DNA of 64,000 bases from a bacterium (GTDB taxonomy: Bacteria; Patescibacteriota; Patescibacteriia; UBA10025), in assembly GCA_021815445.1 (NCBI GenBank), contig JAKAGM010000001.1:3447-67446 (forward strand). Direction: 5' to 3'. A program made the translations under genes and the position numbers. Under the pieces are notes generated by a model that did no database searches, was not told where the DNA came from, and saw only the letters and a list, made by a program, of their open reading frames with translations. Shown here in pieces: positions 3,534 through 44,586 of the stretch (its first letter is position 1; each line of letters starts with the position of its first letter).

Positions 3534-4784
3534 ATGCCACGAGACGAAATAATTACCGGTCTTGATATCGGTTCGATGACTATCCGGGTAGCAATGGGCC
3601 AGCTCGATCCCACGGGGCAGGGCATCCAGATTCTTGGGGCCTCAGAGGCCCAGGCTGACGGCCTGAGCAAAGGAGCAGTTACGAGCATCGAGGATGCGGT
3701 GTCATCTGTCTCAAAAGCTCTAGAGGATGTCGAGCGCATGACGGGCATCCCCGTCGAGAATGCGTTTGTCGGCATTGGCGGAACGCACATTTCAGCGCAG
3801 GAAAGTCATGGCGTTGTTGCGGTTTCCAAAGCCGACGGTGAGATCAAGGAGGAAGATGTTGAGCGTGTCGTCGAAGCGGCGCAAACCGTGGCGACTCCGC
3901 CGAATTACGAGATACTGCACGTGCTCCCGCGAAGCTTCATCGTCGATAACCAAAAGGGGATCAAGGATCCCATCGGTATGACCGGCATCCGACTTGAAGT
4001 CGATGCGCAGATCATTCAGGGGCTCTCGTCACAGATCAAAAATCTTACCAAGTGTGTTTACCGTACCGGCGTCGATATTAACGATGTAGTCGTCGGCGTA
4101 CTCGCGGCGTCGGAATCTGTACTGACCAAACGCCAAAAGGAGCTCGGTGTGGCGCTCGTAAACCTTGGGGGCTCCACGACGAGCGTTTTGGTTTTTGAGG
4201 AGGGCGACGTCATCCACGCGGCGATCCTGCCTGTCGGCGCGTCACATATCACCAATGACATTGCTATAGGACTGCGTACGTCCATAGATGTCGCTGAAAA
4301 AATAAAGCTCGAATACGGTACGGCAATTCCCGGAGATGTAGCCAAACGCGACGAGATCCGTCTCGAGGATATTAGCCAGCAGGAGACTGGTGTCGTCGAG
4401 CGCAAACACGTTGCCGAAATCATCGAGGCACGCTGTGAAGAGATTTTTAAGCTTATTGAAAAAGAACTTGTGAAGGTCGACAGGTCGGGTCTGCTGCCTG
4501 CAGGGGTGGTCCTCACGGGCGGCGGTGCGAAACTTCCCGGGCTTGTCGACATAGCCAAACGCGAATTCAGGCTCCCGGCTGTCGTCGGATTCCCCCAGAA
4601 CATCGCCCACACTCCTGTCGATAAGATCAATGACCCCGCGTGGTCGACTGCCGTAGGGCTTGTCGTCTGGGGAGCTTCGCTCTCCGCCAAGCACAGCGGA
4701 ACCGGATCGTCTCTTCCCCGGTTTTCTTCCGTTGCAGATGTCACCGGAAAGATGCGGAAGTGGTTCAAATCCCTTATCCCCTAA
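3534..4784 (+). CDS. ftsA: cell division protein FtsA
   Basis: Actin-like ATPase N-terminus ([16 protein letters not shown]) and GGGAKLPGL, immediately upstream of ftsZ. Confidence 0.93.
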
Positions 4785-4801
4785 AAATCCATACTGCACG
4801 T

Positions 4802-5977
4802 ATGAAAAGTCGTCTTAACGGAGGAACGAATGTGGAAATAAAACCTGACATAGAAACATTTGCCAAAATCAAGGTGATTGGCGTTGGCGGATCCGGTGGC
4901 GCGGCTATCGACCGCATGATTTCAGAAAAAATTCGCGGCGTTGATTTTATCGCCGTTAATACTGATGCGCAGGCGCTCCATCATTCCCGGGCCCCCCATC
5001 GCATCCACATTGGCAAGATGACGACAAAAGGCCTCGGTGCTGGTATGGATCCTGAGGTTGGGGCGAAGGCGGCCGAAGAGAGCAGGGACGAGATCCATGA
5101 GGCGTTAAAGGGCGCTGACATGGTATTTATCACCTGCGGTTTGGGCGGGGGCACGGGCACGGGCGCCGCTCCGGTGATTTCAGATATCGCCAAAGAGGTC
5201 GGCGCGCTGACAGTCGCCGTTGTCACCAAACCGTTCGCTTTCGAAGGCGCCCAGCGCAAGTCGATTGCGGAATCAGGCTATCATGAACTCTCAGACCGCG
5301 TGGACACGATCATCATGATACCCAACGACAGAATCCTCCAGATTGTGGACAAAAAGACATCCTTGCTCGAGGCGTTCGGGACAGTTGACGATGTGCTTCG
5401 CCAGGGTGTGCAGGGGATTTCCGAGCTTATCACTATCCCCGGCCTCATAAACGTTGACTTTGCAGATGTGAAATCAATCATGGAAGGGGCAGGTTCAGCG
5501 CTCATGGGCATCGGCCGCGGGACAGGGGAGAACAGGGCAGTGGAAGCTGCGAAGGCGGCAATTGACAGCCCGTTGCTCGAGCTCTCTATCGACGGCGCAA
5601 AAGGCATTCTCTTTACCGTTACCGGCGGGCCTAACTTGGGCATGTATGAGGTCAACGAAGCGGCCCGCGTTATTACCGGATCCGCAGATCCGAACGCGCG
5701 AGTTATCTTTGGCACGATTATCGACGAGGATATGAAGGATGAAATCAAGATAACAGTCATTGCGGCCGGTTTTGGCGAACGAAGTAAGACGAAACGCATC
5801 ACCCCTCAAGTATCAATGCAGGAACGAAGGCCGGAAATGCCCGCCCCGCAACCCCGACCGGTCCAGTCAACTCCTCGCGTCATGCCTCCTGTCCGGCCTA
5901 AGACTCCAGAGCAGCAAAAGACGGCCCAGGAAGAAGAGCTTGAGATCCCCGCGTTCATACGGAAGAAAATGATGTAA
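4802..5977 (+). CDS. ftsZ: cell division GTPase FtsZ
   Basis: [13 protein letters not shown] and the [12 protein letters not shown] tubulin signature, with a Pro-rich linker and a C-terminal IPAFIRKK peptide. The start is refined to the ATG at 4802; the track start at 4640 overlaps ftsA. Confidence 0.95.
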
Positions 5978-6472
5978 AACCGGAACATTCGACAGCTTTC
6001 ACACATGCACTCCCAACCCGAGAGTGCATTTTGGTAAGCCGACTTTTCCACAAGCAAAGGTGGCGCGATGCGTTTGCAGAGGATCTATCGACAGAGTATC
6101 CTTATTTTATGTAAATATTTTACAGAATATTTTTTTTACTTTACGATGTACATTGCTACCTCATCATCCGATATGCATGGGAGGTTGTCGGCACTCTTTG
6201 CTGTCTGCCTGGATGCTCGGACGACGGCGAAGTGCCTTGGCGGTTCATCTGTTTTCTTCATGTTTCTTGATATAGACCGCCGGAACTCTCCAGGCATCCG
6301 CCCGATAATCAGGAGGCAGGTTTTTATCTCTGCAAAATGCCTCTACAGGGTCCTTGAGCTCCCGAAATGCAGTTATCCACAGACTTTTTGTCTTCAGTAA
6401 AGCAGGAATCTTTTTTCCGACACTTATTTCTTCCAAGAGGTTAGCGCAAAAAGTTTAATAGACCCCAAAATG

Positions 6473-24018: not shown

Positions 24019-24044
24019 GATCGAGGTTTGGGAATTAGAGTAGT

Positions 24045-24070
24045 GTATCAGTGTGTTAACACATTGATAC
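24045..24070. repeat. 26-bp GTTAAC-centred palindrome, copy 1
   Basis: GTATCAGTGTGTTAACACATTGATAC. The right arm overlaps a TTGATA-18 nt-TATAAT promoter (24064-24093). Confidence 0.85.
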
Positions 24071-24239
24071 ATACATAAAACTGTTTTTATAATGCATTGA
24101 CACTTGTGTGGGCGACTGCTACCATTGTCTAACCCTTTCGTACATTCGACATTCAAAAACATAACTACCAATAACAGTGCAGCCCTTTATATGTAGGCAA
24201 CACAAATTCTTAGTCCACGTTCTGAAGAAGGAGGATCAC

Positions 24240-38579: not shown

Positions 38580-38605
38580 ATATCAACGTGTTAACACATT
38601 AATAC
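38580..38605. repeat. 26-bp GTTAAC-centred palindrome, copy 2
   Basis: ATATCAACGTGTTAACACATTAATAC followed by ATTTCG, 24 nt upstream of the 38630 ATG. Confidence 0.8.
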
Positions 38606-39508: not shown

Positions 39509-40990
39509 ATGAAAACACGCCGATCAGGCATTCTCCTCCACCCGACTTCGCTCCCCAGTCCGTACGGCATTGGGGACTTTGGGCCGGAGGCGTACAGTTT
39601 CGTGGATTTTCTGAGAAAAGCCGGGCAAAAGTTCTGGCAGGTTTTGCCGCTCAGAATACCCGATGAAACCGGCTCCCCGTACGCGTCGTCGTCTGCGTTT
39701 GCCGGTAACTGGCTCTTGGTCAGTCCGGATCTTTTGGTCGCGCAAGGGCTGTTGCCTGAATCAGAACTCCCGCGCGAACGAAAGGTCGGTTTTGTGAATT
39801 ATGACAACCTGATTCACGACAGGAAAAATATGCTTGACCGTTCTCTGCGGTATTTCGACGATTCGGTATCCGAACGGCTTAAAAAAGCCTTCTGGGAATT
39901 TAAAAAGCGCGAGTCGTGGTGGCTGAGGGATTTTTCCCTTTTTATGGCCATAAAGGATTTTTTTGGAGGCAGATCGTGGCATCGATGGTCCGACGGTTTG
40001 GCGCGAAGAAATCCAGATACGCTCCGGTTATGGGCAAAAACTCTTGGAAATGGAATGAGAATATACGAGTACGGGCAGTGGCTTTTTTTCAGGCAGTGGG
40101 AGAGTTTGCGGGCGTATGCAAATCGTCGCGGAATCCAGATCATCGGTGACGTGCCGTTTTTTGTGCGTCACGACAGCGTGGATGTGTGGAGCCATCGCAG
40201 GTTGTTCATGCTTGATAAGAGGAATCTCCCGCGGGTCGTTTCCGGCGTCCCGCCCGACTATTTCAGTTCCCGAGGACAGATATGGCGCGACCCCCAGTAT
40301 GACTGGAAGGCGATGGAACAGGGGCAATTCACATGGTGGGTACAGCGTCTCGGGATGGTGCTGCGGCTGTATGATAAAGTCAGGCTTGACCATTTCCGCG
40401 GGTATGAAGCAGTCTGGCACATCAGACGGGGGAGTCTGACAGCGCGAAACGGGCACTGGTCTCCCGTGCCTGGCGATAAACTCTTTACTCGCATGTGCAA
40501 ATTTTCGAAACATATGCCGTTTATTGCGGAAGATCTCGGATTGATAACTGACGACGTAACCGCATTGCGGAAAAAATTCGGCTTTCCTTCAATGCGCGTC
40601 CTCCAGTTCGGTTTCTCGCTCAATGCCGGAAATCCGCACGCCATCAAAAACCTGCCTCTGAACGCGGTGGTCTACACAGGGACGCATGATAACAATACCG
40701 CGCAAGGGTGGATTCTCGATGATGCGCCCGCAAATATTCGACGGCACGCTCTCGCCGTGCTTAAAGCCGACAAGCGCACTTTCGCATGGAAGCTTATCCA
40801 AGCAGGGATGAAGTCCCGGGCTGATACGTTCATTGCGCCGCTCCAAGATGTGCTCGGTCTGGGCTCGGAGGCACGCATGAATACCCCATCGACAAAACGA
40901 AAAAATTGGCGGTGGAGACTCAAGCCCGCAGTCCTGACGGACCAGATTGCAAAGAAATTAAGGAAACTCAGCACAGATTCGGGCAGGTAA
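39509..40990 (+). CDS. malQ: 4-alpha-glucanotransferase (amylomaltase, GH77)
   Basis: RRSGILLHPTSLPSPYGIGDFG N-terminus, plus DHFRG, AEDLG and YTGTHDN catalytic-region motifs. Confidence 0.92.
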   Translation: MKTRRSGILLHPTSLPSPYGIGDFGPEAYSFVDFLRKAGQKFWQVLPLRIPDETGSPYASSSAFAGNWLLVSPDLLVAQGLLPESELPRERKVGFVNYDNLIHDRKNMLDRSLRYFDDSVSERLKKAFWEFKKRESWWLRDFSLFMAIKDFFGGRSWHRWSDGLARRNPDTLRLWAKTLGNGMRIYEYGQWLFFRQWESLRAYANRRGIQIIGDVPFFVRHDSVDVWSHRRLFMLDKRNLPRVVSGVPPDYFSSRGQIWRDPQYDWKAMEQGQFTWWVQRLGMVLRLYDKVRLDHFRGYEAVWHIRRGSLTARNGHWSPVPGDKLFTRMCKFSKHMPFIAEDLGLITDDVTALRKKFGFPSMRVLQFGFSLNAGNPHAIKNLPLNAVVYTGTHDNNTAQGWILDDAPANIRRHALAVLKADKRTFAWKLIQAGMKSRADTFIAPLQDVLGLGSEARMNTPSTKRKNWRWRLKPAVLTDQIAKKLRKLSTDSGR

Positions 40991-41305
40991 ATAAAAAAAG
41001 CCCCTCGCCTCAATGGTGGGTCTCATCGAGTACTCAAAGGGGCTTCTCGGGCAGCCGCGCAGGGTACGGAGTTTCATACCCACTAACGTCGCCAACGTTC
41101 TTCGCGACACCCGGTCGTTTCCAGGGAAAACCTGGTTCTGCTTGTTCTTGTCGGATAAAATAAATGTACCAATTACAAGCCTACCTTCGGTTGCCATTAA
41201 GGTCAAGTGGAATTTTTGAAATTAGTCGGACTTCTTTGTGGATCCACGTCAAACTCGCTAAGCACGACGGTACGGGCAGGCGGGGAGACTGTTTTCAGAA
41301 GTAAG

Positions 41306-41432
41306 CGGACCCAACCCCGTCATTCGCGAATGACGGGGTGGTCTTCTCCGTGATCCCGCACCATGTCGCTTCGCTCCAGATGCGGGACTTCGCAGGGAGG
41401 CATTTTCCTCAAACCGGACCCAAGGGGATTTG
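41306..41432 (-). pseudogene. degenerate partial tRNA-Asp copies
   Basis: 41410-41432 repeats 23 nt of the T-loop/acceptor/trailer segment (identical to 41568-41590). 41306-41399 carries TTGGGTCCG plus TCACGGAGAAGACCA and CTCCCTG, with a 39-nt hairpin inserted in the anticodon loop and the T-arm replaced by a 9-bp hairpin. Confidence 0.6.
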
Positions 41433-41572
41433 GTTCCGGGGTCTCGCTGTTCCTTCGGAACATCGCTCGACCCGTCTCGTCCCGCGCGAAGCAAAACTAT
41501 TTGCTTCGCTTGTTGACTCAACCCCCTGATCTTCTCGGGGATCTGTGCAAGTTAGGCGCATTGTTTCCAAAC

Positions 41573-41647
41573 CGGACCCAAGGGGATTTGAACCCCTGGT
41601 CTTCTCCGTGACAGGGAGACGTGTTAACCGGGCTACACCATGGGTCC
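41573..41647 (-). tRNA. tRNA-Asp (GTC)
   Basis: Manual cloverleaf: GGACCCA/TGGGTCC acceptor, GTGT/ACAC D-stem, TCTCC-CTGTCAC-GGAGA anticodon arm, AGGGG-TTCAAAT-CCCCT T-arm, discriminator G. No CCA is encoded. Confidence 0.9.
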
Positions 41648-41757
41648 GGTTTGGAAACAATATGTTAATGTGACGTTCACTACTTTACCAAGCGAAATGG
41701 GAAATGTACAGGGATAGCACAAAGAACTGTCACTGTCCGCCGGAGGGGCGGTTTTTC

Positions 41758-42105
41758 CTATTTTTTTGCGGCTTTCTCAACCACTGCGGCAAAGATTTGA
41801 GGATGGAATTCAGCAAGGTCAGCCAATATTTTTCTATTGAGCTCAATCTTGGCAATCTTCAGGAGATGAATTAATTTAGAATAACTCATCTTGTTCTGGC
41901 GAGCAGCGGCGTTGACTTGCATCGTCCATTGAGAGCGAAAGTCGCCTTTTTTCATCTTGCGATGCTTGTACGCGAAGGATCCCGCTTTTAGGTGAGCGAC
42001 TTTGGCAAGCCGGGGTATATTTTTCCTGCCCCACCTGTAGCCTTTTACTTTGCGCAGGAGGCGTTTTCTTTTTTTTGCCCTAATTGTTCCACGTTTGACG
42101 CGCAT
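41758..42105 (-). CDS. rplT: 50S ribosomal protein L20
   Basis: MRVKRGTIRAKKRKRLLRKVKGYRWGR... Confidence 0.95.
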   Translation of the reverse strand: MRVKRGTIRAKKRKRLLRKVKGYRWGRKNIPRLAKVAHLKAGSFAYKHRKMKKGDFRSQWTMQVNAAARQNKMSYSKLIHLLKIAKIELNRKILADLAEFHPQIFAAVVEKAAKK

Positions 42106-42840: not shown

Positions 42841-43110
42841 TTAATGATTAACTTTCTTGTAGGGGTGACCAAATTCGATCAAATTGAGTTTTTTGTCTCG
42901 CCGCCAGCCTTTAATCTGTCTTTCTCGGTTTCTTGCTTCTCGAAGAGTATCAAATTGTTCTTGATATACCAACTTTACTGGAAGCCTTTTTCTCGTATGT
43001 TCGGGACCCAACCCGAGATTGTGTATCTTAACTCTTACTTTAAGGTGGCTACTAGTTCCTGTATACAGCGAGTTATCAGAGCAAAGAAGGATGTAAAGAT
43101 AGTACTTCAT
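42841..43110 (-). CDS. GIY-YIG nuclease family protein (UPF0213-like, 89 aa)
   Basis: YYLYILLCSDNSLYTGTS...REARNRERQIKGWRRDKK. The start is refined to the ATG at 43110, because the longer track ORF runs into the tmRNA gene. Confidence 0.8.
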   Translation of the reverse strand: MKYYLYILLCSDNSLYTGTSSHLKVRVKIHNLGLGPEHTRKRLPVKLVYQEQFDTLREARNRERQIKGWRRDKKLNLIEFGHPYKKVNH

Positions 43111-43231
43111 ACTCTTGGTGCCCTTCGGTATGCTCAGGGCACCATTCGATTCAAGGCTGCCTTGACTTAAGGGGTTGTCGATCCTCCTATTGGTCGAAGA
43201 CCATGAGTGAGGAGCGTAGCGACGAATCGAA

Positions 43232-43631
43232 TGGTGGAGATGAGGGGAATTGCACCCCTGTCCAATATACGAACCAGTCAACGTCTCCAAGCTATCCTAT
43301 TTTAGCGTGGTCGATGGCAGAAGTCAAAATAGGAAAAAGGTCCTGCCATCCGAGTCTCGTGGTACGGCCGGGAGCAAGAGACACGCTCGTCGGTCGTCCT
43401 CCGTTTGTGACACCTCCGACCTTCTCAGGAGGAATCAGAAGGGGAGATGGTTATCGGTTTTTACGCGACAACAGGCGCAAAGGAAGGCGCAAATACGCTT
43501 GCAAGTGCGGTCTTCGCTTTGCTTACAAATGATTTGGCATTTGTCTAATTGGAGCCAGTTTAACGTCATGAACTGCCGTGGACGGCTTGCAGTTGAGATG
43601 GCAATGTACACTGTCGATTATAAGCATCCCC
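43232..43631 (-). ncRNA. ssrA: tmRNA (SsrA)
   Basis: 5' GGGGATGCTTATAATCGACAG... and 3' ...GGACAGGGGTGCAATTCCCCTCATCTCCACCA. The acceptor GGGGAUG/CAUCUCC includes a G3:U pair (alanine identity). It lies directly downstream of smpB. A candidate tag frame ends ...FAPVVA-UAA. Confidence 0.88.
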
Positions 43632-44109: not shown

Positions 44110-44184
44110 AGGAATATGAGTAGTATACAGGATTTTTGAACTGTGGATAATCGGGGTTGACGTCCGAAGTTGTTTGGGTGTAGT

Positions 44185-44210
44185 GTATCAATGTGTTAAC
44201 ACACTAATAC
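44185..44210. repeat. 26-bp GTTAAC-centred palindrome, copy 4
   Basis: GTATCAATGTGTTAACACACTAATAC, preceded by GTAGT as in copy 1, 22 nt upstream of the yerC-like ATG. Confidence 0.85.
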
Positions 44211-44232
44211 ACCTCAGCATGTACCCCATTTT

Positions 44233-44586
44233 ATGCCAAAGCGTTCGATAGACTGGAACAAAAGAAAAACAAGCGATCTCTTTGAAGCGGTTCTCGCGCT
44301 TAAAACGCAGGATGAGTGCAGGCGTTTTTTCCGTGACCTGTGCACGCTTGAGGAAATTGCCGCACTTGCCGACAGGTGGCAGATGGTCAAAATGATGGTC
44401 CAAGGATATTCATACCGCGATATATCGGCGAAACTCAAAGTGAGCACAACGACTGTTGCCCGTGTCGCGCAGTGGTTCACACGAGGCGAAGAGGGTTATC
44501 GGCTCGTGGTTAAGAGACTGGGGCTCACCAGACTGCCTGAAGCAAAAATTTCTTCAAATCATTATCACCACGCTTCTCTTCACTGA
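44233..44586 (+). CDS. TrpR-related YerC/YecD-family DNA-binding protein
   Basis: ECRRFFRDLCTLEEIAALADRWQMVKMMVQGYSYRDISAKLKVSTTTVARV, a Trp-repressor-like HTH. Confidence 0.8.
   Translation: MPKRSIDWNKRKTSDLFEAVLALKTQDECRRFFRDLCTLEEIAALADRWQMVKMMVQGYSYRDISAKLKVSTTTVARVAQWFTRGEEGYRLVVKRLGLTRLPEAKISSNHYHHASLH

Follow-up and report, generated by a model that had tools for sequence, protein, structure and literature searches.

The window analysed here, the whole 64,000-nucleotide stretch taken from contig JAKAGM010000001.1 (its locus is called W below), contains after rplT an array that appears to be one working tRNA-Asp gene among the relics of its own earlier copies, an arrangement typical of a Parcubacteria-type clade. 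The leader of the intact gene pairs with its trailer in a long helix that continues the acceptor stem (the stalk). Downstream lie two broken tRNA-Asp copies (pieces 2 and 3), interrupted by palindromes and, in piece 2, by a structured insert of about 105 nt (the module). The explanation that we favor combines one functional gene, a stalk that would act in the RNA, and relics left by recurrent, plausibly nuclease-driven, duplication and insertion; for this mechanism taken as a whole, we regard the chances of its being right and of its being wrong as about balanced. Related loci, designated by L-numbers, were drawn from a genome collection and from metagenomes, and about 125 tRNA-Asp loci were examined in all. 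All array coordinates given below are on the minus strand.

The genome belongs to the Patescibacteria (candidate phyla radiation, CPR) and is of the Parcubacteria type: its L20 protein is 64-67% identical to named Patescibacteria/Parcubacteria proteins from metagenome-assembled genomes. The order of genes on the minus strand is smpB, transfer-messenger RNA (tmRNA), a small GIY-YIG nuclease gene, infC, rpmI, rplT, and the tRNA-Asp array, which converges on malQ. The whole locus recurs identically in an independent 877-kb contig and is therefore not an assembly artefact. In all five closest relatives from the genome collection, tRNA-Asp stands after rplT. The nearest relatives of W are L192 and L193 (L20 75% identical).

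The stalk of the intact tRNA-Asp gene

The intact gene (41573-41647) is a 75-nt tRNA-Asp(GUC). It scores 67.7 bits against Rfam RF00005 (threshold 29) and is read by ARAGORN with anticodon gtc, both of which place it among the tRNAs. Its trailer begins gtttgg, and no CCA is encoded. The leader ttgtttccaaacc (the 5' strand of the stalk, 41660-41648) pairs with the discriminator G73 and with the complementary trailer gtttggaaacaa (together 41573-41561; the 3' strand of the stalk itself is 41561-41572), c41648 lying opposite G73. The 13 stalk pairs (C(-1):G73 and 12 leader-trailer pairs) and the 7-bp acceptor stem make up a perfect helix of 20 bp. The initial annotation of this DNA had described both the tRNA-Asp(GTC) without CCA and the extension of its acceptor stem to a perfect 20-bp duplex, and both descriptions hold. 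An inverted-repeat search over the stalk returns arms of 24 nt that are 96% complementary, and the tRNA together with its stalk folds at -55 kcal/mol (RNAfold; z = -5.5).

How common are such helices among relatives? In a metagenome scan with the tRNA-Asp body, which gave 113 usable loci, the leader-trailer extension is at most 2 bp in 101; 11 loci have at least 7 contiguous stalk pairs (ten of them 10-15 bp), and one has 5 bp. Beyond these 113, stalked genes are found in L192 and L202 and, with small internal loops, in L093, L141, and L128. L001 and L002 have helices of the same design as the stalk of W, and their sequences are unrelated to it. We aligned 14 stalked tRNA-Asp genes (alignment A2). 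The 13 stalk pairs are 94% paired in this alignment, a percentage that is partly circular because the loci were selected for pairing. Both sides have changed at every stalk pair except the invariant C(-1):G73. All 14 sequences pair at position -13 and 8 of the 14 at -14, a drop which shows that the length of the stalk is fixed while its sequence is free to drift. The long covarying helix around a mature RNA that characterizes a leader-trailer processing stem is thus present, as 13 bp plus the 7-bp acceptor stem. Encoded CCA is found in none of the 11 most clearly stalked tRNA-Asp genes of the metagenome sample versus 65 of the 101 unstalked ones. These observations indicate that the stalk is a conserved feature and not an accident.

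Two further relatives on long contigs, one with a stalked array (L202) and one with an unstalked gene (L203), have no other tRNA nearby. The tmRNA of W was considered as a second stalked gene and rejected: its CCA is encoded, and both a stalk and a duplicated end are absent.

Two observations concern the surroundings of the gene in relatives. In L194-L196, the place occupied by tRNA-Asp in other relatives, about 50-150 nt after rplT, has an opposite-strand tRNA-like sequence (gggatcgaaccgggg...) that ARAGORN does not call. In L129, about 0.8-2.8 kb upstream of tRNA-Asp and on the far side of a sodA-like open reading frame (ORF), there are genes (4395-6387) whose translations, inspected by eye, resemble queA and queH of the queuosine pathway; the Q34 tRNAs include tRNA-Asp.

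Relic copies, inserted hairpins, and the module

Piece 2 (41415-41541) is a 3' part of tRNA-Asp, recognized from direct repeats and by reading of the letters. It consists, in order, of TCcCcGAGAAGATCA (positions 35-49, 80% identical to the gene), the T stem GGGGG, TT, the module, AAATCCCC, and TTGGGTCCG. Its end belongs to a 23-nt exact repeat, CAAATCCCCTTGGGTCCGGTTTG, in which 41410-41432 equals 41568-41590 (the end of the gene plus 5 nt of the trailer); an 18-mer from this repeat occurs twice in the window versus 0.01 times expected by chance. Piece 2 is followed by a decayed copy of the trailer (gtttgaggaaaatg, 41401-41414; compare gtttggaaacaa after the gene), which, unlike the trailer of the intact gene, is no longer complementary to the leader.

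Piece 3 (41306-41400; fold z = -4.3) begins with the 5' strand of the anticodon stem plus C32, U33, and G34 (CCTCCCTG, 41393-41400). Between G34 and U35 there is a palindromic insert of 39 nt (41354-41392), made of the spacer cgaag and a hairpin, TCCCGCA...TGCGGGA, with the loop motif GCGAAGC (hairpin part 41354-41387). Next come positions 35-49 (TCACGGAGAAGACCA, 41339-41353; all 15 identical to the gene), a perfect palindrome of 24 nt in the place of the T arm (CCCCGTCATTCGCGAATGACGGGG, 41315-41338; found by inverted-repeat search and folding), and the acceptor 3' strand plus G73 (TTGGGTCCG, 41306-41314), again identical to the gene. The exact 23-nt recurrence of the T-loop, acceptor, and trailer segment at 41410-41432 and the 39-nt insert between positions 34 and 35 of the third piece had already been pointed out in the initial annotation and are borne out here; the stem of the hairpin in the T-arm place, given there as 9 bp, is 10 bp.

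Downstream of piece 3 lies cttacttctgaaaacagtctcccc (41282-41305), the ancestral trailer, which in the old gene formed the 3' strand of the stalk. The intact stalked tRNA-Asp of L192 has cttatttctgaaaccagtctcccc after it, and the end of piece 3 with the 24 nt downstream matches the end and trailer of that gene at 34 of 36 positions. The leader that would be the partner of this trailer, ttcagaaatRagc, is present in L192 and L193 and gone in W. The match to L192 shows piece 3 to be the ancestral tRNA-Asp in situ, minus positions 1-26 and the leader; the intact gene of W is a newer upstream copy with a different stalk. A degenerate 5' remnant of an older copy (tggtaaagtagtgaACGTCACATTAACATA, 41661-41690) precedes the intact gene and was recognized by alignment with the end of a clear 5' fragment in L162 (CACGTCTCACATTAACATA) and with remnants in L192 and L193. 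Neither piece 2 nor piece 3 has an Rfam tRNA match even at E <= 10, and no tRNA could be put together from the pieces in W, which have neither positions 1-26 nor a T loop.

The same layout is found in relatives. At least seven loci (L001, L175, L150, L162, L133, L088, and L187) have 5' fragments upstream of the gene, composed of the acceptor 5' strand and the D arm with an inserted hairpin; the well-preserved ones occupy the same place as the remnant at 41661-41690. The downstream 3' fragments comprise CTC(C/A)CTG (the start in L088, L133, L162, L175, L187, L202, and L093), a spacer of 4-5 nt, a hairpin, TCACGGAG, a second hairpin in the place of the T arm, and the acceptor 3' strand. This last strand is identical to that of the tRNA in the same genome, and a copy of the trailer often follows it. 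Inserts at 34/35 that are homologous to the one in W (cYtg plus CCCCG..CGGGG), with covarying stems, occur in eight other copies. T-arm replacements analogous to that of W are found in L133, L074, L080, L162, and L202. The number of relics ranges from none (L002, L181, L140) to two or three (L175, L202), and in L202 they form tandem units of 3' fragment plus trailer. The shared layout argues that the array is not random debris. The initial annotation had allowed that the region might be neutral debris, should the flanking helix and the hairpin region prove unconserved in related genomes; both are conserved, and we reject that reading.

Some copies are nested, one tRNA-Asp inside another. There are three such arrangements, all with complementary breakpoints. 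In L093 the break falls between positions 34 and 35 (outer positions 1-34, a rod, the stalk, the inner tRNA, outer positions 35-76). In L128 it falls between 50 and 51 (outer positions 1-50 with three hairpin inserts, the stalked inner gene, outer positions 51-73), and the outer copy bears a stalk of its own. In the stalk clade the breakpoints are at positions 26-28.

Common to the insert hairpins are a YCCCG...CGGGR base, stems that covary, and a spacer of 4 nt, which stands on one side. In the 34/35 inserts the spacer comes first and the loops contain GCGA(A)GC, while in the D-loop and variable-loop inserts the spacer comes last and the loops contain the complement of this motif. The dozen cases at hand suggest one kind of insert in two orientations, which points to events at the level of DNA. 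In the non-coding tRNA-like sequence of the 64 kb, the only YCCCG..CGGGR hairpins are the two in the array. A genome-wide palindrome family, similar to repetitive extragenic palindromes or bacterial interspersed mosaic elements (REP/BIME), was considered and dropped, as many intergenic copies were not found.

The module (41422-41526) lies in the T loop of piece 2. Its parts are hairpin 1 (GCGAAGCAAA/TTTGCTTCGC, 41486-41509), a GCGGGACGAGACGGG box, and a GAGCGATG box with hairpin 2. The 137 nt between the tRNA copies, which the initial annotation described as a chain of stable hairpins, indeed form stable hairpins (z = -3.35). Compensatory changes are seen in hairpin 1 among the module copies; consensus folding secures this hairpin only, structure elsewhere in the module being weak. 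Besides W, the module is detected by nhmmer in six other loci (L175, L193, L129, L107, L093, and L185), with E-values of 7e-18 to 5e-29 for full copies and 2e-10 for L185, where it is cut at the contig end. Every copy is within about 400 nt of a tRNA-Asp and on the same strand. Six loci (L129, L107, L093, L100, L164, and L004) have an internal box whose sequence is reverse-complementary to the T arm of the neighboring tRNA and varies together with it. Related elements in non-stalk lineages have an inverted copy of the tRNA 3' end first and a direct copy last, the latter running through the T-stem 3' strand, the acceptor 3' strand, G73, and CCA to a terminator of its own. "Class A" elements of the minihelix type (L113, L158, L164, L100, L161) were not joined to the W-type module by nhmmer iteration, and their homology to it rests on shared architecture only. 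We regard the module, which accompanies tRNA-Asp in different lineages, as a candidate for a new mobile element or structured RNA.

One further observation on these elements comes from L004. There the tRNA-Asp terminator is immediately followed by an inverted copy of the tRNA's T arm and acceptor 3' strand (5895-5925; tggctggtgtggggattcgaacccg), which together with a direct copy about 170 nt further on forms inverted repeats of the tRNA 3' end bracketing the downstream element.

Several other identities were considered for the module and the array. A relaxed Rfam scan, as the initial annotation had suggested, recovers only tRNA and tmRNA and no module family in the region and 15 related loci (Rfam 15, at gathering thresholds and at E <= 10). 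RNase P RNA, signal recognition particle RNA, a Y-RNA-like molecule, and a ribozyme, compared by eye with the hairpin chain, were dropped for want of any Rfam signal. A phage origin was set aside, viral contigs having no exact match to the module. A protein-coding reading was rejected as well: the four ORFs of 63-87 amino acids across the array and an adjoining ORF of 82 amino acids have no Pfam match, nor has any ORF in 40958-41660.

Origin of the array and rival explanations

We looked at GIY-YIG nuclease genes as a possible source of breakage. Small ORFs of this kind are frequent in the loci. They lie within 500 nt of an ARAGORN-called tRNA or tmRNA in 11 of 14 cases, a zone that makes up 11% of the sequence, and the one in L001 is about 125 nt from an Rfam-called tmRNA. 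In L123, L074, and L003, a GIY-YIG ORF separates a fragment of tRNA-Asp from the intact gene; the ORF of L074 extends into the tRNA, which contains its stop codon. L003 and L004, which are 97% identical on both sides, differ by the presence of the ORF. In L075 (about 560-900 in locus coordinates), a GIY-YIG ORF has on either side a copy of a 35-nt sequence similar to the 5' half of tRNA-fMet, and one of the two copies is split by a TCCCG...CGGGA hairpin. This arrangement suggests that the pattern of fragment, hairpin, and nuclease is not limited to tRNA-Asp. The small GIY-YIG gene of W (42841-43125, minus strand; Pfam PF01541, E = 1.6e-15) is separated by 107 nt from the tmRNA upstream of it and by 1.2 kb from tRNA-Asp; it is syntenic in L001 and L192 and belongs to the context, outside the array. 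A precedent is SegB, a GIY-YIG endonuclease encoded among the tRNA genes of T-even phages, which causes these genes to be inherited preferentially and tRNA segments to be amplified (PMC2330249, PMC13096335).

A separate observation concerns L102, L078, and L172, where five tandem 27-nt repeats (ccagcgaacgaggtcgagttgcctctt) stand between the tRNA-Asp terminator and the GIY-YIG ORF.

We propose that the stalk, which continues the acceptor stem coaxially, most likely acts at the level of RNA and clamps the right 5' and 3' acceptor strands together. In the primary transcript, two more identical copies of the 3' strand would compete with that of the gene. Two or more pairs between the leader and the 3' end already inhibit bacterial RNase P (PMC9433436), and leader-trailer helices of rRNA are a general bacterial processing device (PMC11404451). 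The duplex of about 20 bp would have to be opened first, by unwinding or by a cut, for which RNase III, the enzyme that acts on rRNA processing stems, is the most plausible candidate; only then could RNase P cleave, the 3' end be trimmed, and CCA be added. The relics would arise by tandem duplication, by nesting of a stalked copy inside an older copy, and by palindromic insertion in either orientation, and repeated DNA breakage by small nucleases similar to GIY-YIG homing endonucleases would be the likely cause, by analogy with SegB. We infer the RNA-level function of the stalk, the role of RNase III, the nuclease as the driver, and any function of the module.

Several points weigh against this mechanism. 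The window and the sequence beyond both of its ends contain no other tRNA of the same genome with which the stalk might be compared. RNase III, the RNase P protein (RnpA), and RNase Z were not found in the roughly 72 kb searched, which is uninformative either way. The pairing percentage is partly circular, as noted, and the excess of G.U (6) over A.C (2) in the stalk speaks only weakly for the sense strand of an RNA. The stalk might instead belong to the DNA level, as a product of template switching or as the two arms of a fold-back cassette. On the side of the nuclease, no GIY-YIG remnant is detectable within 40950-41760, the nearest GIY-YIG gene of W adjoins the tmRNA, whose 3' end shows no duplication, and the GIY-YIG proteins, of about 85-115 amino acids, consist of the catalytic domain only. 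Since the only GIY-YIG gene of W is beside the tmRNA and the array has no remnant of one, the link to the nuclease is circumstantial. Finally, well-preserved relic segments that persist across a deep clade of reduced genomes are hard to square with pure debris, and so are the sequence conservation of the module and the antisense T-arm box that tracks the neighboring tRNA. They hint at a further function.

If the stalk is a processing stem, tRNA maturation here would begin with a double-strand cut or unwinding and not with RNase P. This would bear on RNA processing in ultra-reduced CPR bacteria with few RNases and would explain the loss of the encoded CCA. An essential single-copy tRNA gene that is repeatedly broken and rebuilt would be a chromosomal counterpart of the SegB-driven amplification of phage tRNA genes. 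Such relic arrays are also a source of annotation errors, in the form of pseudo-tRNAs and missed genes.

A bolder proposal, which we entertain as possible though doubtful, is that a dedicated selfish system resides at the tRNA-Asp genes of Patescibacteria, as a new mobile or RNA element specific to tRNA-Asp. A small nuclease and/or a fold-back cassette would break the resident gene and install a stalked replacement. The module could be the non-coding part of the system (as a guide or recognition RNA, or as a new small RNA resembling a tRNA), a suggestion based on its tRNA-Asp-like 3' end and on the antisense T-arm box that tracks the local tRNA. If true, this would be an undescribed tRNA-gene-specific mobile or RNA-guided element and the first bacterial "tRNA within a tRNA".

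Might the stalked tRNA-Asp itself be a mobile DNA unit? As a self-targeting fold-back cassette, it would enter a resident tRNA-Asp and supply the replacement; the short palindromes would be its empty derivatives, and the module a non-coding recognition or RNA component. We consider this unlikely. The three apparently independent nestings (L093, L128, and the stalk clade), with exact complementary breakpoints and an inner copy that is always stalked, are in its favor, as is the difference between the stalks of inner and outer copies. However, the inner and outer exons are near-identical within a genome, as for local copying or gene conversion and not for arrival from outside, and in L175 and L202 the same leader and trailer accompany the relics and the intact gene, in keeping with simple tandem duplication. 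The inner tRNA of L093 tips a rod, cctgCCCCACT...AGTGGGG, that elsewhere is an empty hairpin at 34/35, and the two orientations of the inserts, distinguished by spacer side and loop motif (GCGAAGCG versus CGCTTCGC), again argue for DNA-level events; yet the stalk sequence is different in every genome, so it does not represent protein-recognized terminal repeats, and no recombinase or transposase is associated. The high conservation of the module sequence between distant loci would also fit a mobile cassette, but no genome-wide hairpin family exists, and nothing was found in viral contigs.

Another possibility is a functional composite RNA, with relics and module kept for work in the transcript, for example as a tRNA-Asp-like decoy or regulator. 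In one variant, it would be a new family of small RNAs with a 3' end that imitates the acceptor/T-arm minihelix of tRNA-Asp; the antisense T-arm box would then pair either with tRNA-Asp or with the end of the small RNA itself. The conserved module and its covarying hairpin agree with this, but the consensus structure is weak outside hairpin 1. The change of the antisense box with the neighboring tRNA in the six loci listed above and the tRNA-like ends of the non-stalk elements, complete with CCA and terminator, also agree with it, but these elements have no evident promoter. Relic segments such as TCACGGAGAAGAYC and the acceptor 3' strand are identical to the gene across a deep clade; gene conversion, however, can maintain such identity. 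The location of the inserts, in loops and at junctions, is what one would expect had the fold been important at the time of their origin, whereas palindromes in both orientations are not predicted by RNA function. The relics cannot be tRNAs, for want of a T loop, a D arm, or the 5' strand of the acceptor stem, and relic content varies greatly from locus to locus, down to none. All in all, we find a composite RNA distinctly unlikely.

Scars of integration are an improbable source of the array. Successive elements would have used the 3' half of tRNA-Asp as attachment (att) site attB, in the T loop and in the anticodon loop, and would later have been deleted. The exact 23-nt direct repeat, from the T loop to 5 nt past the tRNA end, is of the kind expected. 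Piece 3 starts at the anticodon stem and piece 2 is broken in the T loop, and these are the two classic sublocations of crossover in tRNA genes, reportedly set out by Williams in 2002. In the non-stalk loci, terminators follow both the gene and the repeat, and prokaryotic tRNA gene fragments derived from integrative elements are common (PMC9897764). But there is no integrase or other Pfam-recognizable ORF in or beside the array, and none of the roughly 125 loci examined has a large element at this site. The upstream 5' fragments and the nested copies would not be made by 3'-end integration, piece 3 is the ancestral gene in situ, interrupted twice, and not a displaced end, and the sequence between the repeats is a conserved, covarying structure. 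Decayed att-site duplications, one of three readings offered by the initial annotation, are for these reasons the weakest of the three. The second, a pseudo-tRNA array, is right as a description. The third, an unrecognized structured RNA co-transcribed with the tRNA, is upheld as to structure by the covariation of the stalk in 14 loci and by the conservation of the module in six other loci; as to transcription, it is putative.

A split or multi-intron tRNA, in which the outer pieces are exons of a second tRNA-Asp and the inserts and inner tRNA are spliced out, is scarcely credible in general and close to refuted for W: the outer exons of L128 and L093 are complete, in order, and with inserts in loops, and Patescibacteria tRNA-Asp introns are known at position 35/36 (PMC13011429), but the inserts are 30-40 nt long, occur in both orientations, have no group I match at E <= 10, follow a 5' exon that ends in G34 and not in U, and allow no bulge-helix-bulge (BHB) motif to be drawn, the genome is bacterial (tmRNA, SmpB), and the W pieces, having neither positions 1-26 nor a T loop, could yield no tRNA. 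Two specific intron types were also rejected for the insert in piece 3: a group I remnant, on the basis of the 39-nt size, the junction (G34/c...a/T35), and the absence of an Intron_gpI match at E <= 10; and a BHB intron, since inspection of 34/35 and the stalk found no 3-nt bulge, 4-bp helix, and 3-nt bulge, in a bacterial genome.

Neighboring features and known systems

Between rplT and the array, a box GTGACAGTTCTTTGTGCTAT (41714-41733, minus strand) is kept in W, L192, and L193 and is a putative promoter; GTGACAG is also found 3' of rplT in L001-L005. A GC-rich hairpin (41737-41751) between rplT and this box has its T run on the plus strand, and both neighboring genes are on the minus strand. 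On the other side of the array, in 40991-41206 (minus strand), there is a promoter-like TTGACC (41206-41201), a 17-nt spacer, and TAGGCT (41183-41178). About 170 nt follow this box, ending in a long-loop terminator shared with malQ, and may represent a separate small RNA. The sole Rfam match in 40991-41206 is weak and at chance level (rnk_pseudo, E = 0.63).

The tmRNA (43232-43631, minus strand) has an unusually long predicted tag of 25 amino acids, AKSFVSKAKTALASVFAPSFAPVVA; the tags of relatives have 9-22. A palindrome of about 28 nt, TGTATCAGTGTGTTAACACATTGATACA, with its variants, occurs three times in the window (24044-24071, 38581-38604, and 44183-44212). The last copy is about 20 nt upstream of the ORF at 44233-44586, which encodes a Trp-repressor-like helix-turn-helix protein (Pfam E = 5.5e-24), and the palindromes are probably the operator and small regulon of this regulator.

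Here we compare the array with systems of known kind. Like the split, multi-intron, and permuted tRNA genes of archaea, reportedly described by Randau in 2005 and Fujishima in 2009, these loci have breaks at several loop positions and complementary flanks joining the ends. Unlike them, they are in a bacterial genome, show no BHB motif, include an intact uninterrupted gene, and have broken copies that yield no tRNA. REP/BIME are short imperfect palindromes with a 4-nt flank on one side, present in either orientation. The inserts described here are alike in all these respects; however, they are not dispersed and are found only inside tRNA-Asp-like copies.

Patescibacteria have group I introns in tRNA-Asp and tRNA-Asn, at position 35/36 (PMC13011429), a case from the same phylum and the same tRNA, with an insert in the anticodon loop one nucleotide away. 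The insert in W differs in being 39 nt long at 34/35, with no core and no U at the 5' junction, and in having a truncated relic as host copy. As in tRNA fragments derived from att sites (PMC9897764), partial 3' copies lie downstream of the intact gene, including the exact 23-nt repeat. Unlike those fragments, the relics in W have no integrase or element beside them, are accompanied by 5' fragments and nested copies, are interrupted by palindromes and the module, and include one "fragment" that is the old gene in place. The co-location of GIY-YIG genes with tRNA genes resembles that of the SegB homing endonucleases (PMC2330249, PMC13096335), although the proteins here are chromosomal, have about 85-115 amino acids with the catalytic domain only, and are encoded outside the W array; their role in cleavage is putative.

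In rRNA precursors, complementary flanks form leader-trailer helices that enclose the mature RNA (PMC11404451, PMC10250234). The stalk of W differs from these stems in that it encloses a single tRNA of 75 nt, has 13 bp, is coaxial with the acceptor stem up to the pair -1:73, goes with the loss of the encoded CCA, and would be a putative site of cleavage. Like the RNase III stems of rRNA, the stalk encloses the mature RNA, and its helix is kept by covariation and not by sequence.

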